The position numbers and the translations under genes were made by a program. The notes below the pieces were generated by a model. That model was given only the letters and a program-made list of their open reading frames with translations. It was not told the DNA's origin and searched no databases. Positions 2,465-59,415 of a stretch of DNA of 64,000 bases are shown piece after piece. How positions within the stretch are numbered: position 1 is the stretch's first letter; every line of letters begins with the position of its first letter. The stretch comes from Acidobacteriaceae bacterium. GTDB taxonomy: Bacteria; Acidobacteriota; Terriglobia; Terriglobales; Acidobacteriaceae. The stretch spans positions 2,753-66,752 of the forward strand of contig DAIDKP010000009.1 in assembly GCA_027449965.1 (NCBI GenBank), read 5' to 3'.

Positions 2465-2494
2465 TTGACGGCATGCGCGAGCCAAACGTAAGGT
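2465..2494 (+). promoter_or_regulatory. sigma70-type promoter, probably leaderless, for the M28 peptidase
   Basis: TTGACG(2465-2470)-N18-TAAGGT(2489-2494)-N6-ATG(2501), no SD. Confidence 0.65.
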
Positions 2495-2500
2495 TGTGCC

Positions 2501-4003
2501 ATGCGGAAACAACGTGTCTCACTCTTTCTCGGTTTGGCGCTGGTTTGTTCGCCTTGTCTTCTGGCTCAGACTGCGGATGGCGTCAAGCCGACCCTGACGC
2601 TGGATGCTGCGGCGCAGCAGGATCTGATCCATCTTGGCGGACAGATGATGATGGCCGGCAAGGCCTACGAATATGACCGTGAGCTTTCCGACGATATCGG
2701 GCCGCGCCTGACAGGCTCTGCCAACTATGGAAAAGCAACGGACTGGGCTGTGGCCGAGTTCCGGCGTCTGGGGCTGAGCAACGTTCACAAGGAAGGCTGG
2801 ACGATTCCTGCCGCCTGGGAGCCGGAGACACTGGCCACGGCGAGCATGATCCTGCCGCATGAGCAACGGTTGCATCTGGAAAGCGAAGGCTGGAGCCCCT
2901 CGACGCCGCCTGGTGGTGTTCGCGGTTCTGTCTTCTATCTGGATGACCTTACGGTGGAGAGTGTTCGCAGCCATGCGGCAGCCATTCACGGAGCCATTGT
3001 GCTGGTGGACGGCGAATCCGTGGATCGCGGGATCGAGGGTGGCTTCGGCAAGCTCTTTGATGCGCTTCACGAGATTGGTACGCAGGGGGCAAAGGGCCTG
3101 ATTCTGGGCATTGGAACGACGAACAATGCTCCCAGCTTTGTGGGGCTGACGGCCTTTGATGGCTCGCTGACCAATCTTCCCTCCGGCAATCTTGGCCTCG
3201 AAGATACGCTGCTGCTGAAGCGGCTGCTGCAACGGGGTCCGGTGGAGGTGGAGTACAGCTTCAAGAACCGGATTCGCGAAAACGTGACAGTAAATAATGT
3301 GGTGGCAGAGATTCCCGGCACCGACGGCACGGGGGACTATGTGCTCATTGGCGGCCATCTGGATTCCTGGCATCCGGGAACCGGAGCACAGGACAACGGA
3401 ACCGGCGCTGCCACGGTGGTGGCTGTGGCTCAGGCGGTGATGGCCTCTGGCGTGAAGCCGAAGCGGACCATGCGCTTTGTCCTCTTTGGCGGCGAAGAGC
3501 AGGGAACAATCGGCTCCATTCGCTATGCGGAAAAGCATGCCGGGGAGATGAACCGTTGCGTGGGCGTGTTTGTGACGGATACCGGCGCACAGGCTCCGAA
3601 GGGCTGGTATGACTTTGGCCGCTCGGATGAGGCCGGTGCCTTGAAGACCATCCAGCCGCTGCTGGATTCGCTGGGCGCAGGCAGCGTCTCTGACAATGGA
3701 CAATTCACCTTTGAAACGGATGAGTCCGCCTTTCTCGTGAAGGGTGTTCCGGCCTTTGTGCTCTGGACGCCGGTTGATCAATACTTCAAGATTCACCACA
3801 AGCCGAGCGACACCTTTGACAAGGTGAACCAGCGCGACCTGAACCTGGGAGCTGCCACGGTGGGCGTAACGGCCTTTGCCTTTGCCGATGCCGGCAACAC
3901 GCTGCCGCAATACACGGCAAAGCAGGTGATCGACCAGCTGAAGACGGTGAAGGCCTATGGGCAGTATGAGGACCTGCTGCAGCATCATGTGCTGCAACCG
4001 TGA
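2501..4003 (+). CDS. M28 family metallopeptidase (carboxypeptidase Q-like) with PA insert
   Basis: Signal peptide; GPRLTGS, GGHLDSW, GAQDNGTG, GGEEQG, HHKPSDTFDKV zinc-binding motifs. Confidence 0.9.
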   Translation: MRKQRVSLFLGLALVCSPCLLAQTADGVKPTLTLDAAAQQDLIHLGGQMMMAGKAYEYDRELSDDIGPRLTGSANYGKATDWAVAEFRRLGLSNVHKEGWTIPAAWEPETLATASMILPHEQRLHLESEGWSPSTPPGGVRGSVFYLDDLTVESVRSHAAAIHGAIVLVDGESVDRGIEGGFGKLFDALHEIGTQGAKGLILGIGTTNNAPSFVGLTAFDGSLTNLPSGNLGLEDTLLLKRLLQRGPVEVEYSFKNRIRENVTVNNVVAEIPGTDGTGDYVLIGGHLDSWHPGTGAQDNGTGAATVVAVAQAVMASGVKPKRTMRFVLFGGEEQGTIGSIRYAEKHAGEMNRCVGVFVTDTGAQAPKGWYDFGRSDEAGALKTIQPLLDSLGAGSVSDNGQFTFETDESAFLVKGVPAFVLWTPVDQYFKIHHKPSDTFDKVNQRDLNLGAATVGVTAFAFADAGNTLPQYTAKQVIDQLKTVKAYGQYEDLLQHHVLQP

Positions 4004-4031
4004 AGGGCGGCCGATCCTTAGACCATGCAAG

Positions 4032-4065
4032 GCAAAGAGCCACCGCGTTTGCGGTGGCTCTTTGC
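4032..4065. terminator. Intrinsic terminator hairpin between convergent genes
   Basis: GCAAAGAGCCACCGC-GTTT-GCGGTGGCTCTTTGC, perfect 15-bp stem. Confidence 0.8.
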
Positions 4066-4124
4066 TCTTCTGAGGAATCGATGGGCGTCAGCACTGCGGC
4101 CCCGAAGGGCCAACTGCCGGAAGA

Positions 4125-5720
4125 TCAGCTTCTGCCGACCCACTCCTCATAGGGACCTTTGTGGTCTTCGATGCTGCCGTGCTCAAAGTTCCAGAGCCGT
4201 GTGCCAACCTCTTCGATCAGGTCCTGATCGTGCGTGACCAGGAAGACGGTGCCTTCGTAGCGTTGCAGGGCAATGTTGAGCGCGTTGATGGACTCCAGAT
4301 CGAGGTGGTTGGTCGGCTCATCAAGGACGAGAATGTTGGGCTTGAGCAGCATGAGGCGGCAGAAAAGCAGACGGGCAGATTCGCCGCCGGACAGTGCCTT
4401 CGTGGGCTTCAATCCCTCTTCGCCGCTGAAGAGCATCTGGCCGAGCAGGCCGCGGATCTCTTCGCGCGTCACTTTGGGATCCCACTGGTGCAGCCAATCG
4501 GAGACGGTCATCCCATGCTCGATTTCATTGCTGACGTCCTGGGGAAAGTAACCAATCTGTGCCTCGTGGCCCCACTTGACCGTGCCGTTGTCCAGAACAA
4601 AATCCTTGTCGGCAACCTCAGGAACGGGGCTCAGCAGGGACTTGAGCAGGGTGGTTTTTCCCACGCCATTTCGCCCCATCAGACAGACTTTTTCTCCACG
4701 CATGACGGCGGCGGAAAAGCCGGAAAGCACCTTCTGCGGGCCGTAGGATTTGCTTAACCCATCGAACTCGAGCACATGCTTGCCGCTGGGGCGGATCTGG
4801 TCGAACTTGATGAAGGGGCGTTGAATGTTGGACCGGGCCAGCTCCGCAGTCTGCAGCCGTTCCACTTCCTTTTTTCGGCTGGTCACCTGTGTGGATCGCG
4901 TGCCGGCAGCAAAGCGTGAGATGAACTCATTGAGCTGCGCAATCTTCTTTTCCCGCTGCGCATTTTCAGCTTCCAGCCTGGAGCGGATCTGGGTCTTGGC
5001 AACAACCATGTCATCGTATCCGCCGGTGTAGAGGATGATGGTCTGGTAGTCGATATCCGCGGTGTGCGTGGTCACGGCATTGAGAAAATGCCGATCGTGC
5101 GAGATCGTGATCAGAGTGCCCTGGAAGCTGAGCAGAAACTCGCGCAGCCAGTGAATGGACTCGAGATCAAGATGGTTGGTGGGTTCGTCGAGCAGCAGTG
5201 CCTCCGGCTTGCCAAACAGCGCCTGCGCCAGCAGCACGCGCACCTTCTGTCCGCCCTGCAACTCGCTCATCCTGCGCTCGTGCAGCTCGTCGGGAATATC
5301 CAGCCCCTGCAGCAGCACCGCTGCGTCGCTCTCGGCCGTGTAGCCGTCCTCGTCGCCGACAATGCCCTCCAACTCGCCCAGCCTCATGCCGTCTTCGTCG
5401 GTCAGCTCGGCCTTTTCATAGATGCGGTCGCGCTCTTCCATCGCCTTCCACAGCGCGCTGTTGCCCATAATCACCGTATCGATCACGCGATAGGCATCGA
5501 AGGCAAACTGATCCTGGCGCAGAATGCCCAGCTTGCGCGGACGCACGACTGTGCCTTTCTGCGCCTCCAGCTCGCCCGTCAGAATCTTCATGAAGGTCGA
5601 TTTTCCAGCGCCGTTCGGTCCGGTCAATCCATAGCGGCGGCCCGGCGTAAAGGTTACGCTGACATCTTCAAAGAGAACCTTGGAGCCATACCGCATCGTT
5701 ACATTGCTGACACTGATCAT
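4125..5720 (-). CDS. ABC-F family ribosome-associated ATPase (YbiT-like)
   Basis: Two ABC domains (GPNGAGKST, GRNGVGKTT; LLDEPTNHLD twice), inter-ABC linker, no TM segments. Start MISVSNV at 5720. Confidence 0.9.
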   Translation of the reverse strand: MISVSNVTMRYGSKVLFEDVSVTFTPGRRYGLTGPNGAGKSTFMKILTGELEAQKGTVVRPRKLGILRQDQFAFDAYRVIDTVIMGNSALWKAMEERDRIYEKAELTDEDGMRLGELEGIVGDEDGYTAESDAAVLLQGLDIPDELHERRMSELQGGQKVRVLLAQALFGKPEALLLDEPTNHLDLESIHWLREFLLSFQGTLITISHDRHFLNAVTTHTADIDYQTIILYTGGYDDMVVAKTQIRSRLEAENAQREKKIAQLNEFISRFAAGTRSTQVTSRKKEVERLQTAELARSNIQRPFIKFDQIRPSGKHVLEFDGLSKSYGPQKVLSGFSAAVMRGEKVCLMGRNGVGKTTLLKSLLSPVPEVADKDFVLDNGTVKWGHEAQIGYFPQDVSNEIEHGMTVSDWLHQWDPKVTREEIRGLLGQMLFSGEEGLKPTKALSGGESARLLFCRLMLLKPNILVLDEPTNHLDLESINALNIALQRYEGTVFLVTHDQDLIEEVGTRLWNFEHGSIEDHKGPYEEWVGRS

Positions 5721-5901
5721 TCTTCGTCGTCTTTCAGGTTGGGCAGACACTGTGGTTCGTGCGCTCGCCGCCCGCGACGATCACGATCAAAGTGGATGGA
5801 TGCCCGTTGGGAATCGTATTGAGCCTGTTGCGACTGCCTGGTAGCAGTGCCTGCTCTCTTTCAGTTTCTCACAGCTTGCAGTTGTGCGCAGCCCATTGCG
5901 C

Positions 5902-13377: not shown

Positions 13378-14049
13378 TCACAGGAAATCCCGCAAACTCT
13401 CTCGCAACGTGCGATAGGCGCGAAAAAGCAAAGATTTGGTCGCTGACTCACTCAACTGCAACACTTCACCAATCTGGCGATAGTCCATCTCCTGATACTT
13501 GTGCATCAGCACAGCCATGCGCTGCCGCTCCGGCAGTCGGTCAACCTCTCTGCGAATCGCCGCCATACGTTCCTCCCGCACCAGCCGGCGCTCGATATCC
13601 GGAGTCGGATCGGCAACCTCGTTCGTCATCCCGGTCACCGGGTCCACAGCGTCCAGTTCCACGCGCTGCGCCTCGCGTTCGCTCTTGGAATCCCGCGCAT
13701 GATTGGCCGCCAGGTTGGTCGCAATCCGATACAGCCACGTACTGAACTTGGCCTCAGCCCGATAGCTCGTCCTTGCTCGATAGACCCGCAGAAACACCTC
13801 CTGCGCCAGCTCCTCGGCAACGGCCTCCGAGTGCACCATCCGATACAGAAAGTGCACCATCGAGCGATGATATCTTTCCACCAGATAGGTAAATCCGGTT
13901 TCATCGCCCGCAGCCACCGCTTGCATAATCTCTGAATCGGTGCGAGCGCCCGCCTTCGCCGCATTCGGACGTATGGCTTCGTGTTGTGAGTCCGGCTCGA
14001 TCGTCTCTCTCATGCCCAGGCCCGGATTGCCCATCACCAGGGTCGCCAT
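13378..14049 (-). CDS. ECF RNA polymerase sigma factor (cassette 1)
   Basis: AEELAQEVFLRVY, FSTWLYRIATN (region 2); LPERQRMAVLMHKYQEMDYRQIGEVL (region 4). Confidence 0.92.
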   Translation of the reverse strand: MATLVMGNPGLGMRETIEPDSQHEAIRPNAAKAGARTDSEIMQAVAAGDETGFTYLVERYHRSMVHFLYRMVHSEAVAEELAQEVFLRVYRARTSYRAEAKFSTWLYRIATNLAANHARDSKSEREAQRVELDAVDPVTGMTNEVADPTPDIERRLVREERMAAIRREVDRLPERQRMAVLMHKYQEMDYRQIGEVLQLSESATKSLLFRAYRTLRESLRDFL

Positions 14050-14055
14050 GTCCTT

Positions 14056-14083
14056 GTGGACACAACTTCAGCTTAAAAGTTGC
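14056..14083 (-). promoter_or_regulatory. Candidate autoregulatory ECF promoter, leaderless
   Basis: Minus strand GCAACT-N16-GTCCAC-N6-ATG(14049). Confidence 0.55.
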
Positions 14084-24877: not shown

Positions 24878-25623
24878 AAGGCGGAGGATGTTGTGCGCTG
24901 TATGAGCGGCAGCGTGGCGAGCCAGTCGCGGATGGCCTGCTGCATGGCGTCGAGATGCCCGGTGAAGAAGTGATCGGCGTCGGGAATGAGGCGAAGCTGC
25001 GCGTGCGGCGCGGCGAGCGCGATGGTGGCGGCGAGCGCCTGGGGCGAAGCGAAGCTGTCCTGAGCGCCGGAGAGAAACAGGCTGGGCAGGCTCCAGTGAG
25101 CCAGCTGCGGATAAGCGTACTGCTGATTGGGCGAGCGTAGCGGCAGGCCCAGCGCGAGACAGGCGCAGACCGAGCGATGCGTGGCGGCAACGGCGAGCGT
25201 GATGGCTGCGCCGAAGGAAAATCCCGCGGCGAGGATGGGCCGATGTGTCTGCGTGTCGGGTAGCGGAAATTCGTCGTGCCTTGCCTTTTCGAGCTTTGTT
25301 TTTTCGAGCCAAGTGAGCGCTGCGGCCAGGTCGTCGGCTTCGGCGTGGCCGTCATGTGTGCCTTCGCTGAGGCCAACGCCGCGAAAGTTGAAGCGCAGCG
25401 TGGGCCAGCCGAGATCGCGAAAGACGCGCGCGGCGTGGTAGACGACCTTGTTGTGCATGGAGCCGCCGCCGAGCGGGTGGGGGTGCGCGAGGACGACAGA
25501 ACAAGGCGCGGAAGCATGGCCGGGATCGAGCAGCGCTTCCAGACGCCCGGCGGGTCCATCGATGAAGAATGTCCGCAGTGTGGGAGGAACGGCAGGCGTC
25601 CGAGATTCCGTGTGTGAGTCCAT
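24874..25623 (-). CDS. Alpha/beta hydrolase (XCC0279/AT2-like family)
   Basis: GPAGRLEA, HPHPLGGGSMHNKVV, RFNFRGVG.S.G, GFSFGA nucleophile elbow, ADHFF. TATCAT-N7-ATG at 25623. Confidence 0.85.
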   Translation of the reverse strand: MDSHTESRTPAVPPTLRTFFIDGPAGRLEALLDPGHASAPCSVVLAHPHPLGGGSMHNKVVYHAARVFRDLGWPTLRFNFRGVGLSEGTHDGHAEADDLAAALTWLEKTKLEKARHDEFPLPDTQTHRPILAAGFSFGAAITLAVAATHRSVCACLALGLPLRSPNQQYAYPQLAHWSLPSLFLSGAQDSFASPQALAATIALAAPHAQLRLIPDADHFFTGHLDAMQQAIRDWLATLPLIQRTTSSAL

Positions 25624-25700
25624 GAGGAAGATGATAGCGCCGGAACGAGCGCAAGCGCGGGCTGCGATATGCTGGCAGGGAGAATGCAAAGCAGGGAGCG

Positions 25701-26753: not shown

Positions 26754-27602
26754 TTACCAGGTGTGCAGCCACTCGCCGTCGTGGCCGATGCGGACTTCGG
26801 CGCGAAAGAGATCGCTGAGCGTGGGGGCGGTGAGCAGCGTGTGACGCGGACCGTCGGCGACGATGCGCCCATCGCGCATGAGTAGCACGCGCTCGATCTC
26901 CGGGAAGATATCGGCCAGATGATGGGTGACGAGGATGATGCCGATGCCGTCGGCGGCGAGGCGGCGGAGCGCTTCGCGCAGCTCGCGCTGGGCGGCGATG
27001 TCAAGGGCGTTGGATGGCTCGTCAAGGAGCAGTTGGCGCGGACGGTGAACGAGCGCACGGGCGATGAGGATGCGGCGTTTTTCGCCTGCCGACATTTCGC
27101 CGACAAAGCGCTGCGCGAGATGTGTGGCGTCGATGCGGGCGAGCGCGTGGTGTGCGGCCTCGCGCATGGCTGCGGTGATCTCCAGATGAGGCCAGAGCGT
27201 GGAAGCGCCAAAGAAGCCGGCCAGCGTGGCGTCGAGGCCGGTGGTGCGCGCGGTCAGGCATCCGGCGGTGTCGGCGGTGCGCGAGTAGCCCTGATGGCCG
27301 GGAAGGTTGTCGGAGACGACGCCGAAGTGGCGGCGAAGCTGGTTGAGATCCCAGCGTGGACGGCCAAAGATGCGCAGTTCGGTGCCGGGCAGCACGAGCG
27401 GATAGAGTTCGCAGGTGAGTGTGCGGATGAGTGTGGACTTGCCGCAGCCGTTGGGGCCAAGGATGGCGATGTGTTCGCCGGCGCGGATGGTGAGCGAGAG
27501 ATCGTGCAGGACTTTGCGCTCGCCCAGAGTGACGGTGACGTGGCGCATTTCCAGGAAGGTTTCAGCGGAGGGTTCAGAGGGGATCGATGCAGAGCTGCTC
27601 AC
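26754..27602 (-). CDS. Stand-alone ABC ATP-binding protein (ModF-like)
   Basis: GPNGCGKST, MSAGEKRR, LLLDEP, LVTHH. GTG start at 27602. Confidence 0.8.
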   Translation of the reverse strand: MSSSASIPSEPSAETFLEMRHVTVTLGERKVLHDLSLTIRAGEHIAILGPNGCGKSTLIRTLTCELYPLVLPGTELRIFGRPRWDLNQLRRHFGVVSDNLPGHQGYSRTADTAGCLTARTTGLDATLAGFFGASTLWPHLEITAAMREAAHHALARIDATHLAQRFVGEMSAGEKRRILIARALVHRPRQLLLDEPSNALDIAAQRELREALRRLAADGIGIILVTHHLADIFPEIERVLLMRDGRIVADGPRHTLLTAPTLSDLFRAEVRIGHDGEWLHTW

Positions 27603-27620
27603 TTTGTTAGAGTAAACGGG
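27603..27620. promoter_or_regulatory. Symmetric bidirectional -10 element, leaderless in both directions
   Basis: Plus TAGAGT(27608-13)-N7-ATG; minus TACTCT(27614-09)-N6-GTG. Confidence 0.6.
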
Positions 27621-28832
27621 ATGAGCGATCTGACGAGACTGATGATTCCGCGGGGCTTTCGCTTTGCGGCGGCGACGGCTGGGCTGAAGGCAAGCGGACG
27701 ACCGGATTTTGCGTTGATTGTGGCGGACAAAGCGGCCAGTGCCGCGGCGATGTACACGGCAAACAAGGTGTGCGCGGCACCGCTGGTGCTGGACCGCGAA
27801 CACATGACGGCGACCGGAGGGCGAGTGCGCGTGGCGGCGATCAACGCCGGCAATGCCAACTGCGCTACGGGGCAGGTGGGCATTGACGCGGCCAGGCGCG
27901 TGTGTCAGGCGGCGGCGGAGCGGTTTGGCTGCCGCGCCGAAGAGGTGTTTCCGTCTTCGACGGGCATTATCGGGGTGCCGCTTGATGCGGATAAGCTGGT
28001 GCGCGCGCTGGGGTCGATGGAAGCTGCGCTGGGCGCGGATGTGGAGGATTTTCATGCTGTGGCGCAGGCGATTCTGACCACGGATACGGTGGAGAAGACG
28101 GCTTTTGCACGGGTCTTTCGCGATGGCGCGGAGATTCGCATCGCCGGTCTGTGCAAGGGTTCCGGCATGATCCATCCACAGCTTGTGCCCCATGCGACGA
28201 TGCTGGCCTATGTGATGACGGATGCGGCGGTGAAGCCGGAGGTTTTGCAGGCGATGTTGCAGGGCGCGGCGGAGCACAGCTTCAATCGTATCTCGGTGGA
28301 TGGCGACACCTCGACCAACGACACGGTGCTGGCGTTGGCGTCGGGAGTGAGTGGCGTTGCGATTGAGGCCGGAGATGCGGAGTTTCAGGCGGCGCTGGAG
28401 CAGGTGATGGTTTCACTGGCGCGGCAGATTGTGGCGGATGGTGAAGGTGTACGCCATGTGGTTGAGCTGCGCATTGAGGGCGCGGCGACGGAGGCCGATG
28501 CGGTGCGCGTGGCCAGAGCGATTGCGCACTCGCCGCTGGTGAAGACGGCGTGGGCTGGGTGCGATCCAAACTGGGGTCGGCTGATGGCGGCGATTGGCTA
28601 CTCAGGCGCGGCGATCGAGCCGGAGCGCCTGGAGATCGATTTTGGCGAACTGGCGATCTGTCGCGCAGGGGGTCGCGCGGCGGAGATGGATGTGGCGGCG
28701 GCGCACGCGTACCTGAAGCAGGCGGAGTTTGCGGTGACGGTGCGGCTGGGCATGGGCGAGGCGCGCTGCACCTTCTGGACGACCGACCTGACGGCGGAGT
28801 ATGTGCAGATCAATGCGGATTATTCAACGTAA
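27621..28832 (+). CDS. argJ: Ornithine acetyltransferase / N-acetylglutamate synthase
   Basis: GLKASG..D, INAGNANCATG, STGIIG, AILTTDT, KGSGMIHP...ATML, DGDTSTNDT, DGEG, NWGR, DLT.EYVQINADYST. Confidence 0.95.
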   Translation: MSDLTRLMIPRGFRFAAATAGLKASGRPDFALIVADKAASAAAMYTANKVCAAPLVLDREHMTATGGRVRVAAINAGNANCATGQVGIDAARRVCQAAAERFGCRAEEVFPSSTGIIGVPLDADKLVRALGSMEAALGADVEDFHAVAQAILTTDTVEKTAFARVFRDGAEIRIAGLCKGSGMIHPQLVPHATMLAYVMTDAAVKPEVLQAMLQGAAEHSFNRISVDGDTSTNDTVLALASGVSGVAIEAGDAEFQAALEQVMVSLARQIVADGEGVRHVVELRIEGAATEADAVRVARAIAHSPLVKTAWAGCDPNWGRLMAAIGYSGAAIEPERLEIDFGELAICRAGGRAAEMDVAAAHAYLKQAEFAVTVRLGMGEARCTFWTTDLTAEYVQINADYST

Positions 28833-28905: not shown

Positions 28906-28934
28906 TTGACCCTCGAAGTGGCGTTCAGTAGAGT
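28906..28934 (+). promoter_or_regulatory. sigma70-type promoter, probably leaderless, for wzi-like gene
   Basis: TTGACC-N17-TAGAGT-N6-ATG(28941), no SD. Confidence 0.7.
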
Positions 28935-28940
28935 GAACCC

Positions 28941-30737
28941 ATGGCATTCTTTGCAGGAAACAGAATCAGACGGTCATGGGTGATTTCATTGGCCGGATTG
29001 CTGGCCACAGGCATGACGCTGAGCTTGCAGGCGGAGACGCCGGGCGCGGCGAGCGAAGCAGCGAACATGGCCAGCGGCGCAGGGGCTGCTGGCGGGCAGG
29101 TGACAGCGGCACCGTGTGATCTGGCGCCACAGGGTTCGCCGTATATTCCGCTGAACTTCTGGCTGTATCCGGCTTTGACGCGTCTGTACTCGCTGGGATA
29201 TCTGGACCCGGCGTTTCTGGGCCTGAGGCCGTGGACACGGCTGAGCGTGGTGCACATGCTGGAGAATACCTCGGCCAGGCTGGAGGATGCGCCGGACACA
29301 GCAGGCAACGAGGAGGCGCGCGGCATCTATGACGCTTTGATGAAGGAACTGAACATCGATGCCGAGGGTCCGTGCGGGAAATATCGCGGGGAGTTCCGCG
29401 TGGAATCGACGTATTCGGTGGAGCGCGGGATCAGCGGAACGCCGCTCCATGACAGCTACCATCTGGGCCAGACGATAGTGAACGACTATGGACGTCCGGT
29501 CGAGGGCGGCTTTGACGACTACTCCGGGGCGAGCGGGTATGCGGTCTCCGGGCCGTGGACGCTGTATCTGAGGACGGAGTTGCAGTATGCGCCGTCAGCG
29601 ACAGGCTACTCGTATTCGCTGTACAGCACGCTTTCTCAGGATGACAACGTTCCGCCGGTGGGCAACGAAGCGCAGGCAACGATTCCGCTGGGGCCAATCG
29701 CCACCAAGGCGGATACGCGTTTGCTCGAAGGCTATCTGTCAGTGCATGTTCTAGGGCACGATATTTCTTTTGGCAAGCAGGATCAGTGGTGGGGGCCGGC
29801 GGCCAGCGGCGCGTATGCCTACTCCAACAATGCGCAGAATATCTATTCGTTTGAAATCAATCGCTCGGAGCCTCTGCGGGTTCCGCTGCTTTCGCGGCTG
29901 ACGGGGCCGTTTCGCTATGAGTTTATCGTTGGCTCGCTGAAAGGACATACCCTTTTCAACGATCCGTGGGTTCATGCGGAGAAGATCAGCATGAAGCCGA
30001 CGCGGAACTTTGAGGTTGGCTTTGAGCGAACGGCGATCTGGGGCGGCGAAGGCCATGTGCCGATTACGATTCACTCCTTTTTGAAGAGTTTTTTCAGTTT
30101 CCAGAATGTTTCCTATGCAGAGAAGATTTCGCGCAACGATCCCGGCGCTCGTTTTGGCGCCTTTGATGTGAACTATCGAATGCCTTTTCTGCGGAACTGG
30201 CTGACCTTTATTGTGGACTCTGAAGCACATGATGACGTGTCGCCGGTTTCTGCGCCGCGCCGCGCTGATTTTACAACCGGATTTTATCTTTCGCATGTGC
30301 CGCGATTGCCGAAGCTGGATGCGCGCGTGGAAGCGATCATGGACGATCAATCGACCTCACGTAGTGTCGGTGGCCAGTTTACCTACTATGAAGGCGAGGT
30401 GCCGCAAGGATATACCAACCAGGGACAGATCTTTGGCCACTGGATGGGACGCGAAGGCAAAGGTGGTGAGGCGTGGTCGACGTGGCACTTCAATCCGAAG
30501 GAGTGGATTACGGTGAACTGGCGTCGGCAGAAGAATGCCAAGGACTTCATTCCTGGCGGCACGACGCTCGATGACTATGGCGTGCAGGTGGTCAAGCGGA
30601 TTACGCCGGAGATCGAACTGGACGGAACGTTTACCTATGAGGGATACAAAGCGCCAATCTATCTGCCAGGCACGCAGAGAGTAACGGCGACAACGATCCA
30701 GTTGACGTGGTTTCCAACGCGGAAGGTGAGCTTCTGA
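28941..30737 (+). CDS. Capsule assembly Wzi-family outer-membrane protein
   Basis: Signal peptide; RPWTR; FGKQDQWWGP.....YSNNA; beta-barrel-like C-terminus ending in Phe. Confidence 0.8.
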   Translation: MAFFAGNRIRRSWVISLAGLLATGMTLSLQAETPGAASEAANMASGAGAAGGQVTAAPCDLAPQGSPYIPLNFWLYPALTRLYSLGYLDPAFLGLRPWTRLSVVHMLENTSARLEDAPDTAGNEEARGIYDALMKELNIDAEGPCGKYRGEFRVESTYSVERGISGTPLHDSYHLGQTIVNDYGRPVEGGFDDYSGASGYAVSGPWTLYLRTELQYAPSATGYSYSLYSTLSQDDNVPPVGNEAQATIPLGPIATKADTRLLEGYLSVHVLGHDISFGKQDQWWGPAASGAYAYSNNAQNIYSFEINRSEPLRVPLLSRLTGPFRYEFIVGSLKGHTLFNDPWVHAEKISMKPTRNFEVGFERTAIWGGEGHVPITIHSFLKSFFSFQNVSYAEKISRNDPGARFGAFDVNYRMPFLRNWLTFIVDSEAHDDVSPVSAPRRADFTTGFYLSHVPRLPKLDARVEAIMDDQSTSRSVGGQFTYYEGEVPQGYTNQGQIFGHWMGREGKGGEAWSTWHFNPKEWITVNWRRQKNAKDFIPGGTTLDDYGVQVVKRITPEIELDGTFTYEGYKAPIYLPGTQRVTATTIQLTWFPTRKVSF

Positions 30738-31956: not shown

Positions 31957-32248
31957 GGGAGACTCCTTTGCGGTCCGGAGGCTGTCCGGAGAGAATGGCG
32001 TGAGGCTTCAGCAAACAAACGATTGATAACGCGAGCGAGGGTGGTTCTGGTTGCGCGTCGAGTATACGCGTGCTGCGCTCTGGCTGACAAAGGGCACTGC
32101 CATGCGGCCACTGCGCGTTCGCGCGACGGCGCTTCCGTTGGTCAAGGGGTGGGGGTTGTAGCCGGATGTGGAGGGTGATGGAAAAGACAAGTATGAATCG
32201 CCGACGGGAGGAAACCAAGGCCATGCCACTTTGGGTACACTCAGTACG

Positions 32249-32764
32249 ATGCGGGTGATGGGGATCGATTGCGGGACGGAGGTTACGGGCTGGGGGGTGG
32301 TGGAAAGCGACCCAGAGGCTCGTTCGCCGATGCTGGTTTGCCGCGGCTATGGGGTGGTACGGCTGGCCAAGCCGAAGTCGCTGCCTCTGCGCTTGAGGCA
32401 GGTGTTTGAGGAACTCTCGGAAAAGATCGCACACTTTTCGCCGGATGTGGTGGCGATTGAGGAAGTGTTTTATTCGGTGAATGCGAAGTCTGCGCTGAAG
32501 CTGGGGCAGGTGCGCGGGGTTGCGCTGCTTGCGGCTGGAGTGGCGGAGTTGCCTGTGGCCGAATATGCACCGCTCAGCATCAAGTCGGCGGTGGTGGGCT
32601 ATGGTTTGGCGGGCAAGGAGCAGGTGCAGTTCATGGTGGCGCGGCTGCTTGCGCTGGACAAGATTCCCGAGCCGGCCGATGCCGCCGATGCGCTGGCAAT
32701 CGCGATCTGCCATCTGCATACGGCTGAGACGCAGGCGATGCATCAGGCTCCGAGCCGTAGATAG
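32249..32764 (+). CDS. ruvC: Holliday junction resolvase
   Basis: MRVMGIDCG, AIEEVF, LGQVRGV, VVGYG.A.KEQV, DAADALAIA. TACACT-N7-ATG. Confidence 0.95.
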   Translation: MRVMGIDCGTEVTGWGVVESDPEARSPMLVCRGYGVVRLAKPKSLPLRLRQVFEELSEKIAHFSPDVVAIEEVFYSVNAKSALKLGQVRGVALLAAGVAELPVAEYAPLSIKSAVVGYGLAGKEQVQFMVARLLALDKIPEPADAADALAIAICHLHTAETQAMHQAPSRR

Positions 32765-46705: not shown

Positions 46706-48666
46706 TTCGTGGCCGTAGTGGAGTTTGGAGTTGCTGTAGTGTTGGCTATGCCCGCCACGATGCCCTTACCTTCTTCGATGGCCAGGATGCGATCGACGGC
46801 AGGAATGTTGAGTTTTTCGATGGTGCGATCAGGCCAGTGAATCTCCACGGCGTCGATGTGTGCGGCATCGCCGAGGCCGAAGTGGAGGCGAAAATCGTTG
46901 GAGGAAAGATAGCTGCCGCCGCTGAGCACATCCTGTCTCTGGCGCTCACCGTTGGCCGTCAGATAGACTGTGCTGCCGACAGCATCGCGTGGGCTTTTCG
47001 GTCCTCCGATCAGGCTTAGCTCAATCCAGTGATGATGGTCGGGGCTGACGTTTTTGAGCAGCACCGGAACGCCATCCATGTTGCTGATGACAACGTCTAT
47101 TTTCCCATCGTTGAAGAGATCGCCAAAGGCCGCGCCACGGCCTACGCTGACGGTGGCAAGTCCGGTGCCTTCGACTGCTGGGACTTCTGTGAAGGTTCCA
47201 TTGCGATTGTTCTGGAAAAGCTGCGGGCGCTGCGCATAGCTCTGCCCCCATTCCGGGTGCTGATCGACCTGCGGGTAGACGTGGCCGTTGGCGATAAACA
47301 GATCGAGCCAGCCATCGTTGTCATAGTCCAAAAATCCGTCACCAAAGCCTACGAAGGGCATGGTAGGCAGCGCGATGCCAGCCTTGTAGCTTTCGTCGCT
47401 GAAGTTGCCAGTTCCATCGTTTTCAAAAAGCACTTTGTAGTCGTCGGCAAAAGTGGTGCTCACCACGTCGAGGTGGCCATTATTTTTGTAGTCACCGAGA
47501 GCCAGGCCCATATTGGCCACTTCACGTCCGCCTTCGTTCACGGCAAATCCGTCGGTGTAGCTGTCGTCCTCAAACGTGCCGTTGTGCTTGTTGATGTAGA
47601 GGTAGTTGGGCGAAGAGTCATCGGCAACCAGAAGATCGGGCCAGCCATCATTGTTGACATCAGCGAAGACCGTGCCCAGGCCATAGTAGCGATCCGGATC
47701 GCTGACCCCGGCCTTGACGCTCACATCGGTGAAGGTTCCATCGCCGTTGTTGTGGAAGAGATGGTCGGCCGCACCCTTGAGGCCGCGCGGACCACACATG
47801 ACCGTAACGCCGCGAAAGACGCAGCGCGAGTAGCCAACAACCTGATTGCCACTTTCCGGCGGGTTGTGAACGTCGAAATCGATGTAGCCGTCGACAAAGA
47901 GATCCAGCCGTCCGTCACCGTCGTAGTCGCCAAAGGTCGCTCCAGCAGACCATCCGCCGAGCGCGATTCCGGCCTTCTCTGCTACATCGGTAAAAGTGCC
48001 GTCATGATTGTTGTGATATAGACGATTTTTGCCGTAGTTCGTGATGTAAAGATCGGGCCACCCATCGTTGTCAAAATCTCCAACGACAACGCCGTATCCC
48101 CAGCGGTCATTGGTGACGCCAGCCTTTGCGGCAACATTGGTGAAGGTGCCGTCATGATTGTTATGAAAAAGTGCAGCCTGCGGTGCTGCGGCTTTGCCGT
48201 CGAGCGCGTCAAAGGTGGATCCGTTGACAAAATAGATGTCGAGCCAACCGTCGTGATCGTAGTCCAGTAGCGCAACGCCAGGGCCTTTGGCCTCAAGAAT
48301 ATATTTTTTCGCAGGAGTTCCGGCGGTGTGATGCCAGATGGTAAGACCGGCCTGCTGCGCGATGTTTTGGAAGATGATCGGACCGCTTTTGACAAATCCG
48401 CCCGCCGTGATGGGACGATGTTGCGCATCGAAAAGTGGTTGTTGTGGAGGTCCGCTGGAAGAACCGCCCATCTGCTGCGCGCGGGCCGGAACGAGCCATA
48501 CAAGAGTCGCGATCAAGAGCATCCAGCAGCTTGACAGAAAAGCGAGACGGTTACGGCGGCGCAGCACTGCGGCGGGTATTCCGGTGAAGAAAACTCCAGG
48601 TCCGGTCATCACACGAATTATACGAGAGCGGAGATGTACGGAAGAACTGACGCGCGTACGGGGCAA
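46702..48666 (-). CDS. CRTAC1-family protein (FG-GAP/VCBS repeats + ASPIC/UnbV)
   Basis: Repeated DYDHDGWLDIY, DFDNDGWPDLY, DYDGDGRLDLF, DVNNDGWPDLL; GGSYLSSNDFRLHFGLG. Exact start uncertain. Confidence 0.88.
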   Translation of the reverse strand: MPRTRVSSSVHLRSRIIRVMTGPGVFFTGIPAAVLRRRNRLAFLSSCWMLLIATLVWLVPARAQQMGGSSSGPPQQPLFDAQHRPITAGGFVKSGPIIFQNIAQQAGLTIWHHTAGTPAKKYILEAKGPGVALLDYDHDGWLDIYFVNGSTFDALDGKAAAPQAALFHNNHDGTFTNVAAKAGVTNDRWGYGVVVGDFDNDGWPDLYITNYGKNRLYHNNHDGTFTDVAEKAGIALGGWSAGATFGDYDGDGRLDLFVDGYIDFDVHNPPESGNQVVGYSRCVFRGVTVMCGPRGLKGAADHLFHNNGDGTFTDVSVKAGVSDPDRYYGLGTVFADVNNDGWPDLLVADDSSPNYLYINKHNGTFEDDSYTDGFAVNEGGREVANMGLALGDYKNNGHLDVVSTTFADDYKVLFENDGTGNFSDESYKAGIALPTMPFVGFGDGFLDYDNDGWLDLFIANGHVYPQVDQHPEWGQSYAQRPQLFQNNRNGTFTEVPAVEGTGLATVSVGRGAAFGDLFNDGKIDVVISNMDGVPVLLKNVSPDHHHWIELSLIGGPKSPRDAVGSTVYLTANGERQRQDVLSGGSYLSSNDFRLHFGLGDAAHIDAVEIHWPDRTIEKLNIPAVDRILAIEEGKGIVAGIANTTATPNSTTATK

Positions 48667-50784: not shown

Positions 50785-52776
50785 TTATTTTGGGCGCAGA
50801 TCGATGACACTACAAATCTCACCGTCAAAAATTTCCAGCGACTGGACAACCAGCGGATGATTCCGCGCTTCCTGGTCGATACTGCCGGCACTGGCAACAC
50901 GGGTCGTGATGGCGACAGAGGATTCGCCGGGAATAATCCGATAACGTGTGGGCGCACCGGATTGTGTCAGCGCCTGGCGGATCAGTTTCTCCGCTGCCGC
51001 ATTGAAGGTGATGCGGATCATCGTTGCTTTGGCCGGAACCTCGATGCGCAGCGAAGCTCCGTCGGGAATCCACTGGCCGGCATCGAGCAACGAAGCCGCT
51101 GAGCTGTGACCGCCGGTTTCGAGCGCCTGCACGACGGCGGCTTGCGCGGCCTCGAGCGAGAAGCCGCCTGCGGAAGACGGTGTTTCGAGCTTGGTTACCA
51201 GCGGTGTTTCGAGCCGTGTATCGATCAGAGCGGTCGAGTCTGGAGTGCTTGCCGCTGCCTCGATCGCGGGGATCGTCGCCACAGCAGGCTCTGCAACTGG
51301 CCGCTGCACAAGTTGCGGCCCAACCGCGCGGGCCAGCGCGCCTTCAGTTTCACGGAACTCCGCATGGCCGGCTTCGATGCGTGTTGATTCGGCATATGCG
51401 GCGGTGGAAGCGGTCATGGGTGAGACGCGCGCAGCAGCAGACGCGACCGGAGCGGATGCGGCAGAACCTGACGAAACAAACGGGGAGGGCGACGGCGCGT
51501 GCGAGCTGGGTACGTGTGAACTGGATGCGTGTGGACTCGCTCCATGCGCGGCGGAGTTGGATCGCGCCGCCAGTGCTGCTCCTTTGGCGGGAAGCGCCGC
51601 CAGACCGCTCAGAATCTGCTCCATGGGAATCAGACGCTGCGCATGGACGAGTCGCAGCAGGCCAAGTTCCAGATGGAAGCGCTGTTCCTGACGAAAGTTG
51701 AGATCGTCAAAGGTGCGCAGCAGCAGTTGAAGATTTCGTGTGAGTTCTTCTTCGCTGAAAAGCTGCGCGGTGCGTGCGGCACGGGCGCGTTCTTCCGTGG
51801 CGATTTGCAGCAGGGTGGTGTTTTCACCGCCCAGCGAAGCCATCAGCGTGTTGCGCAGATACCGAACCATCTGCCGTGCGATGGCCACAGGGCTATTGCC
51901 GCTGGTGAGCAGCCGATCCAGCTCATGCATCAGTGGCGCAGACTCGCCCCGTGCGATGATCTCAAAGAGCCGCTCCAGCGTTGCGTTGGGCAGTGTGCCC
52001 ATCAGTTCGCGGATCAGTGAAGCCTCAAGCAGGGGTTGACCATTCTGTCGCGGCGCGGAGGCGATGGCCTGATCCATGATGGAAAGCGCATCGCGCATGG
52101 AGCCGTCGCCCGCCTCGGCCAGCAGTGCCAGTGCTTCATCATCAAAGGCGATGTTTTCGTGCGCGGCAATGGTGCGAAGCTGCTGGAGAATATCGTCAAA
52201 GCGCACGGCATGGAAGCTGAAGTGCTGACAGCGTGAGCGGATGGTTTGCGGAATGTTCTCCGGCTCAGTCGTCGCCATCATAAAAACAGCCCATTCAGGT
52301 GGTTCTTCCAGCGTTTTCAGAATGGCGTTGAAGGCGGCGTCGGTGATCTGGTGGGCTTCGTCGAGCAGAAAGATTTTGTAGCGGTCGCGCGCCGGGCGCA
52401 CAGTAGCCTGGCTGCAGATGGACCGTACATCGTCGATGCCCCGGTTGGAGGCTGCGTCGATCTCAATGAAGTCAAAGGACTGTGTGGCTGCATCGTCGCC
52501 GCCGCCCGAGGAGATTTCGCGGCAACTCACGCATTGCAGACAAGGCTCGATATCGGGCCGCTCCGGGGAGCCAACCGCGGCGCGGCAGTCCAGCGCCATG
52601 GCCAGGATTCGCGCAATGGTGGTTTTTCCAATGCCGCGATGGCCGGAAAAGATGTAGCCGTGGGCGATGCGTTGCTGCGTGAGCGCATTCTTCAGCGTAC
52701 GCGTCACGTGCTCCTGACCGGCAACGTCGGCAAAGCGCTGAGGTCGATATTTTCGCGCCAGAACCTGATAGGCCAT
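50785..52776 (-). CDS. dnaX: DNA polymerase III gamma/tau subunit
   Basis: YQVLARKYRPQ, GIGKTT, EIDAAS, LDEAH, TIRSRC, GSMRDALS; long Ala/Ser/Pro-rich linker. Confidence 0.95.
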   Translation of the reverse strand: MAYQVLARKYRPQRFADVAGQEHVTRTLKNALTQQRIAHGYIFSGHRGIGKTTIARILAMALDCRAAVGSPERPDIEPCLQCVSCREISSGGGDDAATQSFDFIEIDAASNRGIDDVRSICSQATVRPARDRYKIFLLDEAHQITDAAFNAILKTLEEPPEWAVFMMATTEPENIPQTIRSRCQHFSFHAVRFDDILQQLRTIAAHENIAFDDEALALLAEAGDGSMRDALSIMDQAIASAPRQNGQPLLEASLIRELMGTLPNATLERLFEIIARGESAPLMHELDRLLTSGNSPVAIARQMVRYLRNTLMASLGGENTTLLQIATEERARAARTAQLFSEEELTRNLQLLLRTFDDLNFRQEQRFHLELGLLRLVHAQRLIPMEQILSGLAALPAKGAALAARSNSAAHGASPHASSSHVPSSHAPSPSPFVSSGSAASAPVASAAARVSPMTASTAAYAESTRIEAGHAEFRETEGALARAVGPQLVQRPVAEPAVATIPAIEAAASTPDSTALIDTRLETPLVTKLETPSSAGGFSLEAAQAAVVQALETGGHSSAASLLDAGQWIPDGASLRIEVPAKATMIRITFNAAAEKLIRQALTQSGAPTRYRIIPGESSVAITTRVASAGSIDQEARNHPLVVQSLEIFDGEICSVIDLRPK

Positions 52777-52968
52777 CGGACGGTGCTCCCAATCGGATTG
52801 TATCGTTTGCCGCAAGACTTGCTCAGGACAGGCTGTGGATGTTTTGGCGGTCGGGGCATCTCCAAATGTGGGAACAGGCATCCCAGAGACAGGAATACCC
52901 GGAGCGATTCGCCGGAGTCTGGATGAGGCTCAGCGGTGGATGCGATTCCAAGGTGACAAGGAGAGACG

Positions 52969-55530: not shown

Positions 55531-55615
55531 GGGGCTATGCGCAGTGTAACGGCTGAACCACAACACCAGCCGCGGGGTGAGGCGAGAGGCTTTGTTGCCG
55601 GGTTAGAGTAAAAAC

Positions 55616-56542
55616 ATGCACAGCCATGCGAACGAGTCCTCGCCGACGGAGATGAATGCAGTGACGGAGCACTTTGCCGAGTCCGTGCGGATCATGGCTC
55701 GATTGCGCGCACCGGATGGGTGCCCGTGGGATCGGAAACAGGATTTTGATTCGATTCGGAAATACACGCTGGAAGAAACCTGGGAAGTGCTGGATGCGAT
55801 TGAGCGGCGCGACTGGGACAATCTGCGCGAAGAGTTGGGCGACCTCACACTGCAAGTGCTTTTCTATGCGCAGATGGCGAGCGAGTCGGAGGAAGCGGGA
55901 TTTTCCATCGCCGATGTGCTGGCGGAGTTGAATCGCAAGCTGGTGCGACGACACCCGCACGTCTTCGGTGAGGCGGCTTCGCGTGCGGCTGGAAATCGTG
56001 TGGAAGTGGATGCTGCCGTGGATGGCTCGTCCGAACGCGTGCTGGCCAACTGGGAGGCAATTAAACAAGCGGAGAAGCAAGCGGCAAAATCTGCGGTCAG
56101 CCAGGATCTGCGCAGCAGCCTGCTGGACGGCGTGGTGCGAGGCCAGCCCGCTTTGGCTGAAGCGGCACAGATTGGATCGAAGTCGGCCAGAGTTGGATTT
56201 GACTGGCCTGCTTGGTCTGATCTGCTGAAAAAGCTGGCCGAGGAGACGGACGAACTGGTGGCCGAGGTCGATACGCCGGAACATACTCCGCAACGGCAGC
56301 AGCGTGTCGAAGCTGAACTGGGCGATCTGTTATTCACCGCAGCGCAACTGGCGCGGCATCTCGGCGTCGATGCGGAGATGGCATTGCGAGGAGCGAATCT
56401 GCGTTTTCGGCGGCGATTTGCCTGGATGGAGTGGGCGGCAGAACGAGGATTGGCAGACCTGGAGCCGGAGGCTCTGGAAGAACTGTGGCGACGCGCCAAG
56501 CTTGAGCTGGCAACGACAGAATCGGGAGACGGGAAGCGATGA
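55616..56542 (+). CDS. mazG: Nucleoside triphosphate pyrophosphohydrolase
   Basis: LRAPDGCPWDRKQ, EELGDL, KLVRRHPHVF, GFDW, ELGDLLF, F.RRF; TAGAGT-N6-ATG. Confidence 0.93.
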   Translation: MHSHANESSPTEMNAVTEHFAESVRIMARLRAPDGCPWDRKQDFDSIRKYTLEETWEVLDAIERRDWDNLREELGDLTLQVLFYAQMASESEEAGFSIADVLAELNRKLVRRHPHVFGEAASRAAGNRVEVDAAVDGSSERVLANWEAIKQAEKQAAKSAVSQDLRSSLLDGVVRGQPALAEAAQIGSKSARVGFDWPAWSDLLKKLAEETDELVAEVDTPEHTPQRQQRVEAELGDLLFTAAQLARHLGVDAEMALRGANLRFRRRFAWMEWAAERGLADLEPEALEELWRRAKLELATTESGDGKR

Positions 56543-57369: not shown

Positions 57370-57458
57370 AAGTGGACTCAATCGAGAATGCACTCTGGCG
57401 CTCTGTATGGGTTTGACAGGAATCACAGACCAAATCATGCCGACAAGGATGGAATGCC

Positions 57459-58586
57459 ATGAAGATTGACGCGATTTATCTGCGCGAGCTGAACCTGCCT
57501 CTGGTCAAGCCGTTTCAAACAAGCTTTGGCGTCACGCGTGATCGGCGTGTGGTGCTGGCCGAGGTGCATTCTGAAGGTCTGGTTGGATGGGGCGAGTGTA
57601 CGGCGGGCGAGCATCCGCACTTCTCCGAAGAGTCCGTCGATTCCTGCTGGCAGGTCATCGTCGATGAGCTTGGACCGATGCTGGCCGCTGCCGAACCGGA
57701 GCACGGTGGGCAGATTCCCCGCCTCTTCGGCCTGGTGCGCGGAAACCGCATGGCCAAGGCGACGCTCGAGAATGCGATATGGGATATCGAGGCACAGCGG
57801 AAAGGAATCTCGTTGAGCCGGTTGCTGGGCGGCACGCGCGAGGTGATTCCGTGTGGCGTTTCGATTGGCATTCAACCCGGCATCGACGAACTCTTGGAGA
57901 CGATTGAACGCGAGGTTGCCGCTGGCTACCAGCGCATCAAGCTGAAGTGTAAACCTGGCTGGGATATGAACGTCTTTGATCGCGTCCGGAATCGCTTTCC
58001 GGCGATCACTTTGAGCTGCGATGCCAACTCGGCCTATCGGATGAAGGACTTTGACCACCTCGTGCAGTTTGAGGCCTTTGACCTGCTCATGATCGAGCAG
58101 CCACTCTGGCACGATGATTTCTACTTCCACTCCCTGCTCCAGAAGCGGCTTTCCACCGCCATCTGTCTGGATGAGTCGATCCGCAACCGACGTGACGCGC
58201 TGGCAGCCATTGAGATGGAGTCCTGCAGGATCATCAACATCAAGCTGGGGCGCGTGGGTGGATTCTCCGAGGCAATCGCCGTGCACAACGCGGCGTATGA
58301 GCGCGGCATTCCAGTCTGGTGCGGCGGGATGCTGGAGTCGGGCATTGGCCGTTCCCACAACATCGCGCTCTCCAGCCTGGCCAATTTTTCGTTGCCCGGC
58401 GATGTCTCCGCATCCAGGCGATATTGGACCGAGGACATCATCGATCCGGAGGTTACTGTCTCCGAGCAGGGCGAGATCGTCATTCCCGACACGCCCGGTC
58501 GAGGATTTTCCGTGCGCACCGATCGCGTGGAGCAACTGACCGTGCGCAAAGAGCGGATTCATGCCCGTGTCGCTGTTGCCGTGTAA
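57459..58586 (+). CDS. menC: o-succinylbenzoate synthase / N-succinylamino acid racemase (enolase superfamily, NSAR/OSBS subfamily)
   Basis: PFQTSFG, RIKLKC (KxK), CDANSAY, IEQP, LDES, INIKLGRVGG, WCGGMLESG, PGDVSAS.RYW..D. Confidence 0.88.
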   Translation: MKIDAIYLRELNLPLVKPFQTSFGVTRDRRVVLAEVHSEGLVGWGECTAGEHPHFSEESVDSCWQVIVDELGPMLAAAEPEHGGQIPRLFGLVRGNRMAKATLENAIWDIEAQRKGISLSRLLGGTREVIPCGVSIGIQPGIDELLETIEREVAAGYQRIKLKCKPGWDMNVFDRVRNRFPAITLSCDANSAYRMKDFDHLVQFEAFDLLMIEQPLWHDDFYFHSLLQKRLSTAICLDESIRNRRDALAAIEMESCRIINIKLGRVGGFSEAIAVHNAAYERGIPVWCGGMLESGIGRSHNIALSSLANFSLPGDVSASRRYWTEDIIDPEVTVSEQGEIVIPDTPGRGFSVRTDRVEQLTVRKERIHARVAVAV

Positions 58587-58606
58587 CGTCGCTGTTGCCG
58601 TGTAAC
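58569..58606. repeat. 19-bp exact tandem duplication spanning the menC stop codon
   Basis: GTCGCTGTTGCCGTGTAAC x2. Confidence 0.9.
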
Positions 58607-58617
58607 GAGGATGCGCT

Positions 58618-59103
58618 CTAGCGGCGCGTGAGCGCGCCAATCCACTCCGCTGCTTCGGGCCACTGCTTCACCAGTTCGTCGCGCAGGCCGCTTTGATAGT
58701 CGGCAAAATCGAAGCCGGGACAGACCGTGCAGCCCAGCAGTGCCACGTGGCCGGAACCCAGCAGACGAGCACCCTGCCAGACGCCCGCGGGAACCAGTGC
58801 CTGAACCGATTGTCCCTCCTCGATGCGCGGGCCAAGTACGATGCGCCGATGCGAGCCATCCGGCCAAAGCTGAAGCATCTCGACCGGGTCGCCCAGATAG
58901 AAATGAAAGATCTCGTCTGAGGCCAGCCGATGCATCTCCGAGAATGTTCCCGGTTCGAGCAGATAGTAAATCGCCGAGCCTGCCGAGCGGTTGCCGCGCG
59001 GAGTTGGCAACGATTGCACCGAGGCGTAGGTGCGGCGAAAACTGCCTCCTTCGACAGGATGAGCCTCAAGCGCAAGCAGCTTTTTGATCTGGTCGGAGTT
59101 CAT
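58618..59103 (-). CDS. Cupin (DUF985 / cupin_5 family)
   Basis: LEAHPVEGGSFRRTY, SAIYYLL, HRLASDEIFHFY.G, VP.GVWQ, GCTVCPGFDF.D. Confidence 0.88.
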   Translation of the reverse strand: MNSDQIKKLLALEAHPVEGGSFRRTYASVQSLPTPRGNRSAGSAIYYLLEPGTFSEMHRLASDEIFHFYLGDPVEMLQLWPDGSHRRIVLGPRIEEGQSVQALVPAGVWQGARLLGSGHVALLGCTVCPGFDFADYQSGLRDELVKQWPEAAEWIGALTRR

Positions 59104-59160
59104 GCTTGTCGGTCGCGCCAATGGTCCCGGCAATCTGCCCGGCGGCGATACAATCAGTGT

Positions 59161-59415
59161 ATGCATATTGTGCTCTATTCCGCATCGTGGTGTCGGGATT
59201 GTCGCGCCGCGAAACGTTTCCTGAACGAACATGGAATCGCCTTCGATGAGATCGATATTGAAGAGACCCCGGGTGCTGCCGAAGAGGTGATTCGCCACGT
59301 GGGCAAGCGCGCCATTCCGCAGTTGGTCCTGGATGGTGAATGGTTCCAGCCCTATCGCCCCGGTGAAGGGTTGCTCTATGCGGAGTTGAATCACCGGCTT
59401 GGGATTGCGGTCTAG
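59161..59415 (+). CDS. Glutaredoxin-like (NrdH-type) redoxin
   Basis: YSASWCRDC, IPQLVLDG; TACAAT-N6-ATG. Confidence 0.85.
   Translation: MHIVLYSASWCRDCRAAKRFLNEHGIAFDEIDIEETPGAAEEVIRHVGKRAIPQLVLDGEWFQPYRPGEGLLYAELNHRLGIAV

Follow-up and report, generated by a model that had tools for sequence, protein, structure and literature searches.

Hexamers of the -10 type placed 6-7 nt before start codons suggest leaderless or near-leaderless mRNAs for a moderate class of genes in a soil Acidobacteriaceae genome

Do some genes of soil Acidobacteriaceae begin their transcripts on the start codon itself? The question is raised by a stretch of 64,000 nucleotides (nt) of assembly GCA_027449965.1 (contig DAIDKP010000009.1, positions 2,753 to 66,752; hereafter the window). 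A preliminary description of the window had listed nine genes with a promoter -10 box 6-7 nt before the start codon and no Shine-Dalgarno sequence, and had proposed that the lineage uses leaderless translation for a sizeable class of genes. The organism is a soil Acidobacteriaceae bacterium near Terracidiphilus, its ArgJ protein being 66-81% identical to that of metagenome-assembled genomes and isolates of this group. Scanning of the whole 3.24 Mb assembly (30 contigs, approximately 60% GC) revealed a sharp, frame-specific excess of TANNNT hexamers directly in front of ATG and GTG codons. Leaderless or near-leaderless mRNAs made from sigma-70-type, mostly -10-only promoters are the probable explanation, to which we assign a probability of roughly 0.85.

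Genes were called with a self-trained periodic Markov model, which gave approximately 2,330-2,380 genes (2,383 for the count of class size). Every in-frame ATG, GTG or TTG from the 5' end of the open reading frame (ORF) to the onset of the coding signal was taken as a candidate start, and the frequency of TANNNT ending d nt upstream of the candidate starts was determined for each d. This spacing profile serves as its own control, because false candidate starts contribute only a flat background. The background was modelled separately by 100 shuffles that preserved dinucleotide composition. The comparison with a shuffled background that the preliminary description had put forward as a check gave a clear result: 208 TANNNT hexamers ended 6-7 nt before a candidate ATG or GTG, compared to 58±7 (maximum 76) in the shuffles, a z of about 20. 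In the spacing profile of ATG and GTG there were 135-144 hexamers at d=6, 73-87 at d=7 and approximately 60 at d=8-9, on a background of approximately 40 further upstream and approximately 25 immediately around the peak. The maximum at d=6 was sharp (Poisson z of about 15-16).

The peak was specific to the hexamer, to the reading frame and to the codon. Genome-wide, no such peak was seen for TGNNNT, TANNNA/C/G, ATNNNA, CANNNT, GANNNT, AANNNT or other one-mismatch variants; since single mismatches to TANNNT gave no peak, relaxed hexamers were left out of the class count. In-frame ATG and GTG codons gave counts of 144 and 87 at d=6 and d=7, respectively, against a background of 40. Out-of-frame ATG and GTG codons of the same regions gave no peak, with 23 and 26 against 26 in frame +1 and 16 and 13 against 13 in frame +2. 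Nor was there a TANNNT peak before in-frame TTG, CTG, ACG/GCG, AAG/GAG, ATC/GTC or ATT/GTT/ATA/GTA. This dependence on frame and codon fits a promoter with its +1 on the start codon, since a promoter that merely lay upstream would ignore both.

The composition of the hexamers and the position of the genes pointed in the same direction. At the unconstrained positions the hexamers were -10-like, with the consensus TAcA(a/c)T: A made up 58% of position 4 (32% in control hexamers) and A or C 81% of position 5. The commonest forms were TACAAT (33), TACACT (25), TATACT (15), TAGAAT (13) and TAGACT (12). A divergent upstream neighbour was found for 49% of the leaderless-type genes compared to 31% of the Shine-Dalgarno genes, and a same-strand gene ending within 25 nt upstream for 5% compared to 22%. 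Leaderless-type genes thus tend to head transcription units.

In the window, all nine combinations of motif, spacer and start codon in the preliminary description were present at the coordinates it gave (Table 1), and each of the nine gene identities was confirmed by Pfam. There was also no Shine-Dalgarno sequence at these sites: GGAG and GAGG were absent, and a spacing of 6-7 nt leaves no room for one between the -10 box and the start. Scanning of the window added a further site, upstream of a gene encoding an FG-GAP/ASPIC (UnbV) protein, so that the eight listed sigma-70-type sites, this additional site and the gene for an extracytoplasmic function (ECF) sigma factor were found among approximately 55 genes. 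The FG-GAP/ASPIC family is highly expanded: at E≤1e-100 this genome has nine matches, and relatives have as many as 17.

Five of the nine listed starts (ruvC, the glutaredoxin gene grx, argJ, the ABC ATPase gene and the alpha/beta hydrolase gene) are internal to the longest ORF. The Pfam profiles of RuvC and Glutaredoxin cover the proposed proteins from residue 3 onwards. Homologues of ArgJ in 80 relatives, which include the cultured Terracidiphilus gabretensis S55 and Acidicapsa dinghuensis, align from residue 1, as do those of M28, Grx and ECF within the genus and, in a 58-genome sample of the phylum, those of RuvC in most of the matching genomes. In total, homologue alignment backs the start codon at eight of the nine sites; the start of the alpha/beta hydrolase gene is weakly backed.

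The layout was conserved in relatives to a degree that differed between genes. For wzi it was found at 30 of 35 orthologous loci, in the form of an extended -10 element, TG(A/G)TA(A/G)AGT, 6-7 nt before the ATG. For grx, 17 members of the genus carry TA(C/G/A)(A/G)(A/C)T with 6-7 nt between it and the ATG (18 of 29 loci). For mazG, at least 14 genomes of the genus have TA(C/G)AGT exactly 6 nt upstream of the ATG, and the spacer takes nine different forms (14 of 28 loci). At the M28 peptidase gene, TA(A/G)G(G/A)T-6-ATG was present in five relatives of the genus with different spacer letters, three relatives kept a TTGAC-type -35 element, and the layout was seen at 10 of 19 homologous loci. For ruvC the layout was found at 5 of 29 loci; another genus of the family has TACACT-7-ATG, and another family has TAGACT-6-GTG. 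When the same test of orthologue layout was run out of frame as a control, there were 0-2 matches per gene.

Two further observations concern the neighbourhood of ruvC and a relative of the M28 gene. In many Acidobacteriota ruvC lies directly behind a yebC-type gene; the conserved C-terminus encoded by the latter (...VWANFDID...) stops a few bases short of ruvC. In the family of the window, ruvC has its own leaderless-type promoter rather than this position. In six members of the genus (G001, G005, G008, G013, G014 and G015), the match to a paralogue of the M28 peptidase (31-33% identical over query residues of approximately 55-474) contains exactly one in-frame TAG or TAA. Possibly this stop simply precedes the real start and the six-frame search ran across it; alternatively, it may be a feature that these genomes have in common.

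These data bear on one alternative, that the sites are chance matches combined with mis-called starts among the many ATG and GTG codons of a 60% GC genome. For several of the claimed starts the longest ORF begins further upstream, which would suit this explanation, and approximately 58 of the 208 genome-wide matches are expected by chance, so that one or two of the sites in the window could be accidental, the hydrolase site being the likeliest. For the class as a whole, chance is already contradicted by the shuffles, the frame controls and the orthologue layout; with a z of about 20, starts confirmed by Pfam and homologues, and a spacing that is conserved in relatives when out-of-frame controls give almost no matches, we regard it as the least probable of the explanations considered.

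At the divergent ABC ATPase and argJ genes, the GTG of the former (27602, minus strand) and the ATG of the latter (27621, plus strand) are 18 nt apart, and one near-palindromic TTAGAGTAA is common to both, reading TAGAGT in the plus-strand direction of argJ and TACTCT in the minus-strand direction of the ABC gene. On the argJ side the -10 box (TAGATT or TAGAGT) is conserved in most of 80 relatives, in all but three of which it lies 12-40 nt from the argJ ATG. The homologous box stands within a conserved CTGCTAGATTAAATGGGTT in approximately 60 of the 80, and no obvious Shine-Dalgarno sequence precedes argJ there. The leaderless layout of argJ is thus confined to this genome and its nearest relatives (3 of 80). 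Among orthologues of the ABC gene, some have a GTG 5-7 nt after the box and others an ATG behind a leader of 13-20 nt with GGAGG; the leaderless layout was found at 11 of 77. Because the distance from box to start changes among relatives, the box appears to act as a promoter, which argues against a translation signal at the RNA level. As a separate observation, the conserved CTGCTAGATTAAATGGGTT is longer than a -10 box needs, and a regulator site, possibly for the arginine repressor, may therefore overlap it.

Bidirectional promoters that share one symmetric -10 element have reportedly been described. The ABC and argJ genes resemble them in that one TTAGAGTAA would be used as the -10 on both strands. 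They differ in that neither transcript would have a leader and in that the start codons are only 18 nt apart.

The ECF sigma gene forms a case of its own. The preliminary description had assigned it an ECF-type -10 element, and this assignment holds: GCAAC-17-GTC matches the spacing of approximately 16-17 nt between the -35 "AAC" and the -10 "GTC/CGT" elements of ECF promoters. The arrangement GCAAC-17-GTGT(C/T)C, 8 nt, ATG, together with the N-terminus MAT(S)L, is conserved at constant spacing in 17 members of the genus. It fits an autoregulated ECF-type promoter at which transcription would start at the ATG or a few bases before it. The odds that this gene is strictly leaderless are about even, because the exact +1 is less predictable at ECF promoters.

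Several observations weigh against the interpretation of the class as leaderless genes with sigma-70-type promoters. The Markov gene finder was crude, and some genes were merged or missed; the ABC ATPase gene, for example, was swallowed and argJ was fused with upstream sequence, for which reason the profiles over all candidate starts were relied on rather than single predicted starts. The spacing profile contained a smaller excess at d=8-10 (57-62 and 44-46 compared to a local background of approximately 25-40), which would correspond to leaders of 1-3 nt. At the M28 gene the hexamer TAAGGT overlaps a weak AAGG, the sole Shine-Dalgarno-like match at the nine sites, and in several wzi orthologues GAGG precedes the ATG by 3-4 nt. 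Weakest is the site of the alpha/beta hydrolase gene, its hexamer being kept only in the closest relative; in the single orthologue inspected (G005), which is ambiguous, an alternative in-frame ATG follows a TAAAAT at a distance of 10 nt. Finally, no clear enrichment of a -35 element (TTG, TTGA or TGAC at spacers of 12-24 nt) was found upstream of 231 leaderless-type hexamers, although TTGA at 16-18 nt occurred 10 times compared to an expected 3.5 or so. For most genes, the promoter assignment is consequently based on the -10 box.

A -35 element is visible at just two sites of the window, the M28 gene and wzi. Both of the -35 boxes named for these genes in the preliminary description (TTGACG and TTGACC) are real sequence, but they are no general feature of the class. 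The TGn of an extended -10 element was likewise not enriched genome-wide (12% compared to 12%). The promoters therefore look -10-dominated, as is usual in high-GC bacteria rich in leaderless genes, for which Zheng et al. (2011, BMC Genomics 12:361, PMC3160421) describe the TAnnnT pattern.

The scarcity of -35 elements would also be expected if TANNNT acted on the RNA, as an A/U-rich enhancer unrelated to Shine-Dalgarno pairing or as an unstructured landing site for the ribosome in longer leaders transcribed from upstream promoters. Such a translational signal would likewise be expected to be specific for the frame of true starts. It would not account for the strictness of the T-A-n-n-n-T pattern: TANNNA and AANNNT were not enriched, hence general A/U richness is not what is seen. 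The hexamer content is that of a -10 box, accompanied by the TGn of an extended -10 in wzi orthologues and by a TTGAC -35 at the M28 gene and wzi, and the genes head transcription units. The same box 12-40 nt from the start in argJ orthologues would be intolerable for a ribosome-binding signal. An RNA-level element is accordingly very improbable, if slightly less so than chance.

A closer competitor is that the promoters are real and that +1 lies a few bases upstream of the start codon, which would give leaders of 1-5 nt, especially at spacings of 7-10 nt; initiation would still be independent of a Shine-Dalgarno sequence, though it would not take place strictly on a 5'-terminal AUG. The excess at d=8-10 is in keeping with this, as are the 7-nt spacing at four sigma-70-type sites of the window (hydrolase, argJ, ruvC and FG-GAP) and the GTC of the ECF gene approximately 10 nt before its ATG. 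Against it, the spacing that dominates the profile is exactly 6 nt, which is how far +1 normally lies from the hexamer's end, and the peak occurs at the purine-initial codons ATG and GTG with none at TTG, as fits a +1 on the first base of the codon. We consider short leaders unlikely as the general rule for the class.

According to the preferred explanation, that of leaderless or near-leaderless mRNAs, a housekeeping (sigma-70-type) promoter would place its -10 hexamer, TAcA(a/c)T, 6-7 nt upstream of the ATG or GTG, and RNA polymerase would start at the first base of the start codon or no more than 1-3 nt away from it. The resulting mRNA would lack a Shine-Dalgarno leader, and its translation would follow the leaderless route: the 5'-terminal AUG or GUG would be bound by a ribosome that carries initiator tRNA. 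The ECF sigma gene would appear to do likewise from its ECF-type promoter (GCAAC-17-GTC). We infer both the position of +1 and the mechanism of translation, and apply the term leaderless, from promoter geometry.

The excess over background amounted to between 149 (d=6-7) and 191 (d=6-9) of 2,383 genes, or 6-8%, so that approximately 150-190 genes, mainly at the heads of transcription units, would use this layout; as a share of transcription units the leaderless type is perhaps roughly 10-15%. A larger class has GGAG-type leaders. The clear GGAG sequences noted earlier at many other genes correspond to a genome-wide peak of GGAG and GAGG at d=5-9, whose excess equals approximately 37% of genes, and ordinary Shine-Dalgarno leaders are the majority mode in this genome. 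The earlier proposal of a sizeable leaderless class is thus supported, as far as sequence analysis goes, by the enrichment, its controls and the conservation, but the class is a moderate one, well below the levels of Actinobacteria and Deinococcus.

Table 1. Genes of the window with a promoter-like element directly upstream of the start codon. Positions are those of the window; numbers between hyphens are spacer lengths in nt.
Gene (Pfam)	Span	Strand	Layout	Remarks
M28 peptidase (Peptidase_M28)	2465..2503	+	TTGACG(2465-2470)-18-TAAGGT(2489-2494)-6-ATG 2501	
ECF sigma (Sigma70_r2/r4)	14047..14083	-	GCAAC(14079-14083)-17-GTC within GTCCAC(14056-14061)-6-ATG 14049	
alpha/beta hydrolase	25621..25636	-	TATCAT(25631-25636)-7-ATG 25623	
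ABC ATPase (ABC_tran)	within 27600..27623	-	TACTCT(27609-27614)-6-GTG 27602	
argJ (ArgJ)	within 27600..27623	+	TAGAGT(27608-27613)-7-ATG 27621	
wzi (Caps_assemb_Wzi)	28906..28943	+	TTGACC(28906-28911)-17-TAGAGT(28929-28934)-6-ATG 28941	
ruvC (RuvC)	32236..32251	+	TACACT(32236-32241)-7-ATG 32249	
FG-GAP/ASPIC (UnbV) protein	48607..48622	-	TATAAT-7-ATG 48609	additional site; window scan, Pfam, sequence
mazG (MazG)	55604..55618	+	TAGAGT(55604-55609)-6-ATG 55616	
glutaredoxin (Glutaredoxin)	59149..59163	+	TACAAT(59149-59154)-6-ATG 59161	

Two other genes of the window were also noted. Upstream of dnaX (50785-52776, minus strand) TACAAT lies 20 nt before the ATG with GGGAG between them (52777-52810); this is a leadered, Shine-Dalgarno-using version of the same promoter type. 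Divergent from the glutaredoxin gene is a Cupin_5 (DUF985) gene (58618-59232, minus strand), whose longest-ORF start at 59232 would overlap the start and the promoter of grx. Its true start is probably further downstream, for example at TTG 59121, since the Pfam domain begins only at residue 51.

The same pipeline was applied to samples of 330-400 kb from other genomes, a size at which the variation found would need whole genomes to be firm. Two members of the same genus gave an excess of 6.5% of genes (G005; z at d=6 of 3.4) and 5.9% (G010; z of 4.1). In a different, sister family of the same order the excess was 12.6% (G020; z of 7.7), and in another family of the phylum, with 71% GC, it was 3.1% (G073; z of 4.7). 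No TANNNT peak at 6-9 nt was found in 400 kb of G018, from another genus of the same family, or in 400 kb of G047, from another family of the phylum; both had a strong Shine-Dalgarno peak. The pipeline itself is therefore not the source of the peak.

Usage of the layout thus seems to vary sharply between related lineages, from none to approximately 13%. Because the share varies, because the start codons of argJ and the ABC gene "slide" relative to the box, and because the ECF gene has been kept leaderless or nearly so across the genus, we tentatively suggest that the leaderless layout may be evolutionarily labile among the Terriglobales and not a fixed property of the lineage, although we would put this at somewhat less than even odds. 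If it is true, and mapping of +1 agrees, these genomes would offer a natural series in which to study the selection that favours or disfavours leaderless initiation.

The preliminary description had considered a leaderless class not well characterised in Acidobacteriota. Such a class had in fact already been predicted for the phylum, and with the same TANNNT criterion. The "TA-led" genes of Zheng et al. (2011, PMC3160421) are defined by a TANNNT Pribnow-like signal that lies approximately 10-12 nt upstream of where translation starts and significantly exceeds dinucleotide shuffles; these authors predicted leaderless genes in three of three Acidobacteria genomes, at 9.7-19.4% of genes (their Table 2). 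The present genome has the same signal by that definition. It differs in coming from another, apparently uncultured member of the Acidobacteriaceae and in that its conservative 6-8% is at or below the published range. The controls for frame, codon, operon position and orthologue spacing that were added here go beyond that survey, in which they were not reported per genome.

A second comparison is offered by "group C" of GeneMarkS-2 (Lomsadze et al. 2018, PMC6028130), which is dominated by Actinobacteria and Deinococcus-Thermus and has a Pribnow box 6-8 nt from where the first genes of operons begin. In this group 25-50% of operons are predicted to be leaderless, with backing from differential RNA sequencing in M. 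tuberculosis and D. deserti; the main text does not mention Acidobacteria. Like group C, the genome studied here combines a -10 box near the start of first genes with Shine-Dalgarno sequences elsewhere (a dual start model), and its promoters are largely -10-only. Unlike in group C, the share by excess count is approximately 10-15% of transcription units, below 25-50%, and it is a prediction from sequence. The open-access literature yielded no paper in which leaderless transcripts or transcription starts of any acidobacterium had been determined experimentally.

What has been found here is a known type of gene organisation in an ordinary form, one that had already been predicted for the phylum. 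Knowledge of translation initiation is unchanged by it, the mechanism being established in Actinobacteria and Deinococcus. Its consequences are for the organisms: gene finders that assume Shine-Dalgarno sites will misplace the starts of approximately 150-200 genes in such genomes. Acidobacteria, which are abundant in soil, are difficult to study, and knowledge that approximately a tenth of their transcription units are probably leaderless, with -10-only promoters, in a genome such as this one would aid promoter prediction, the design of expression tools and the interpretation of metatranscriptomes.

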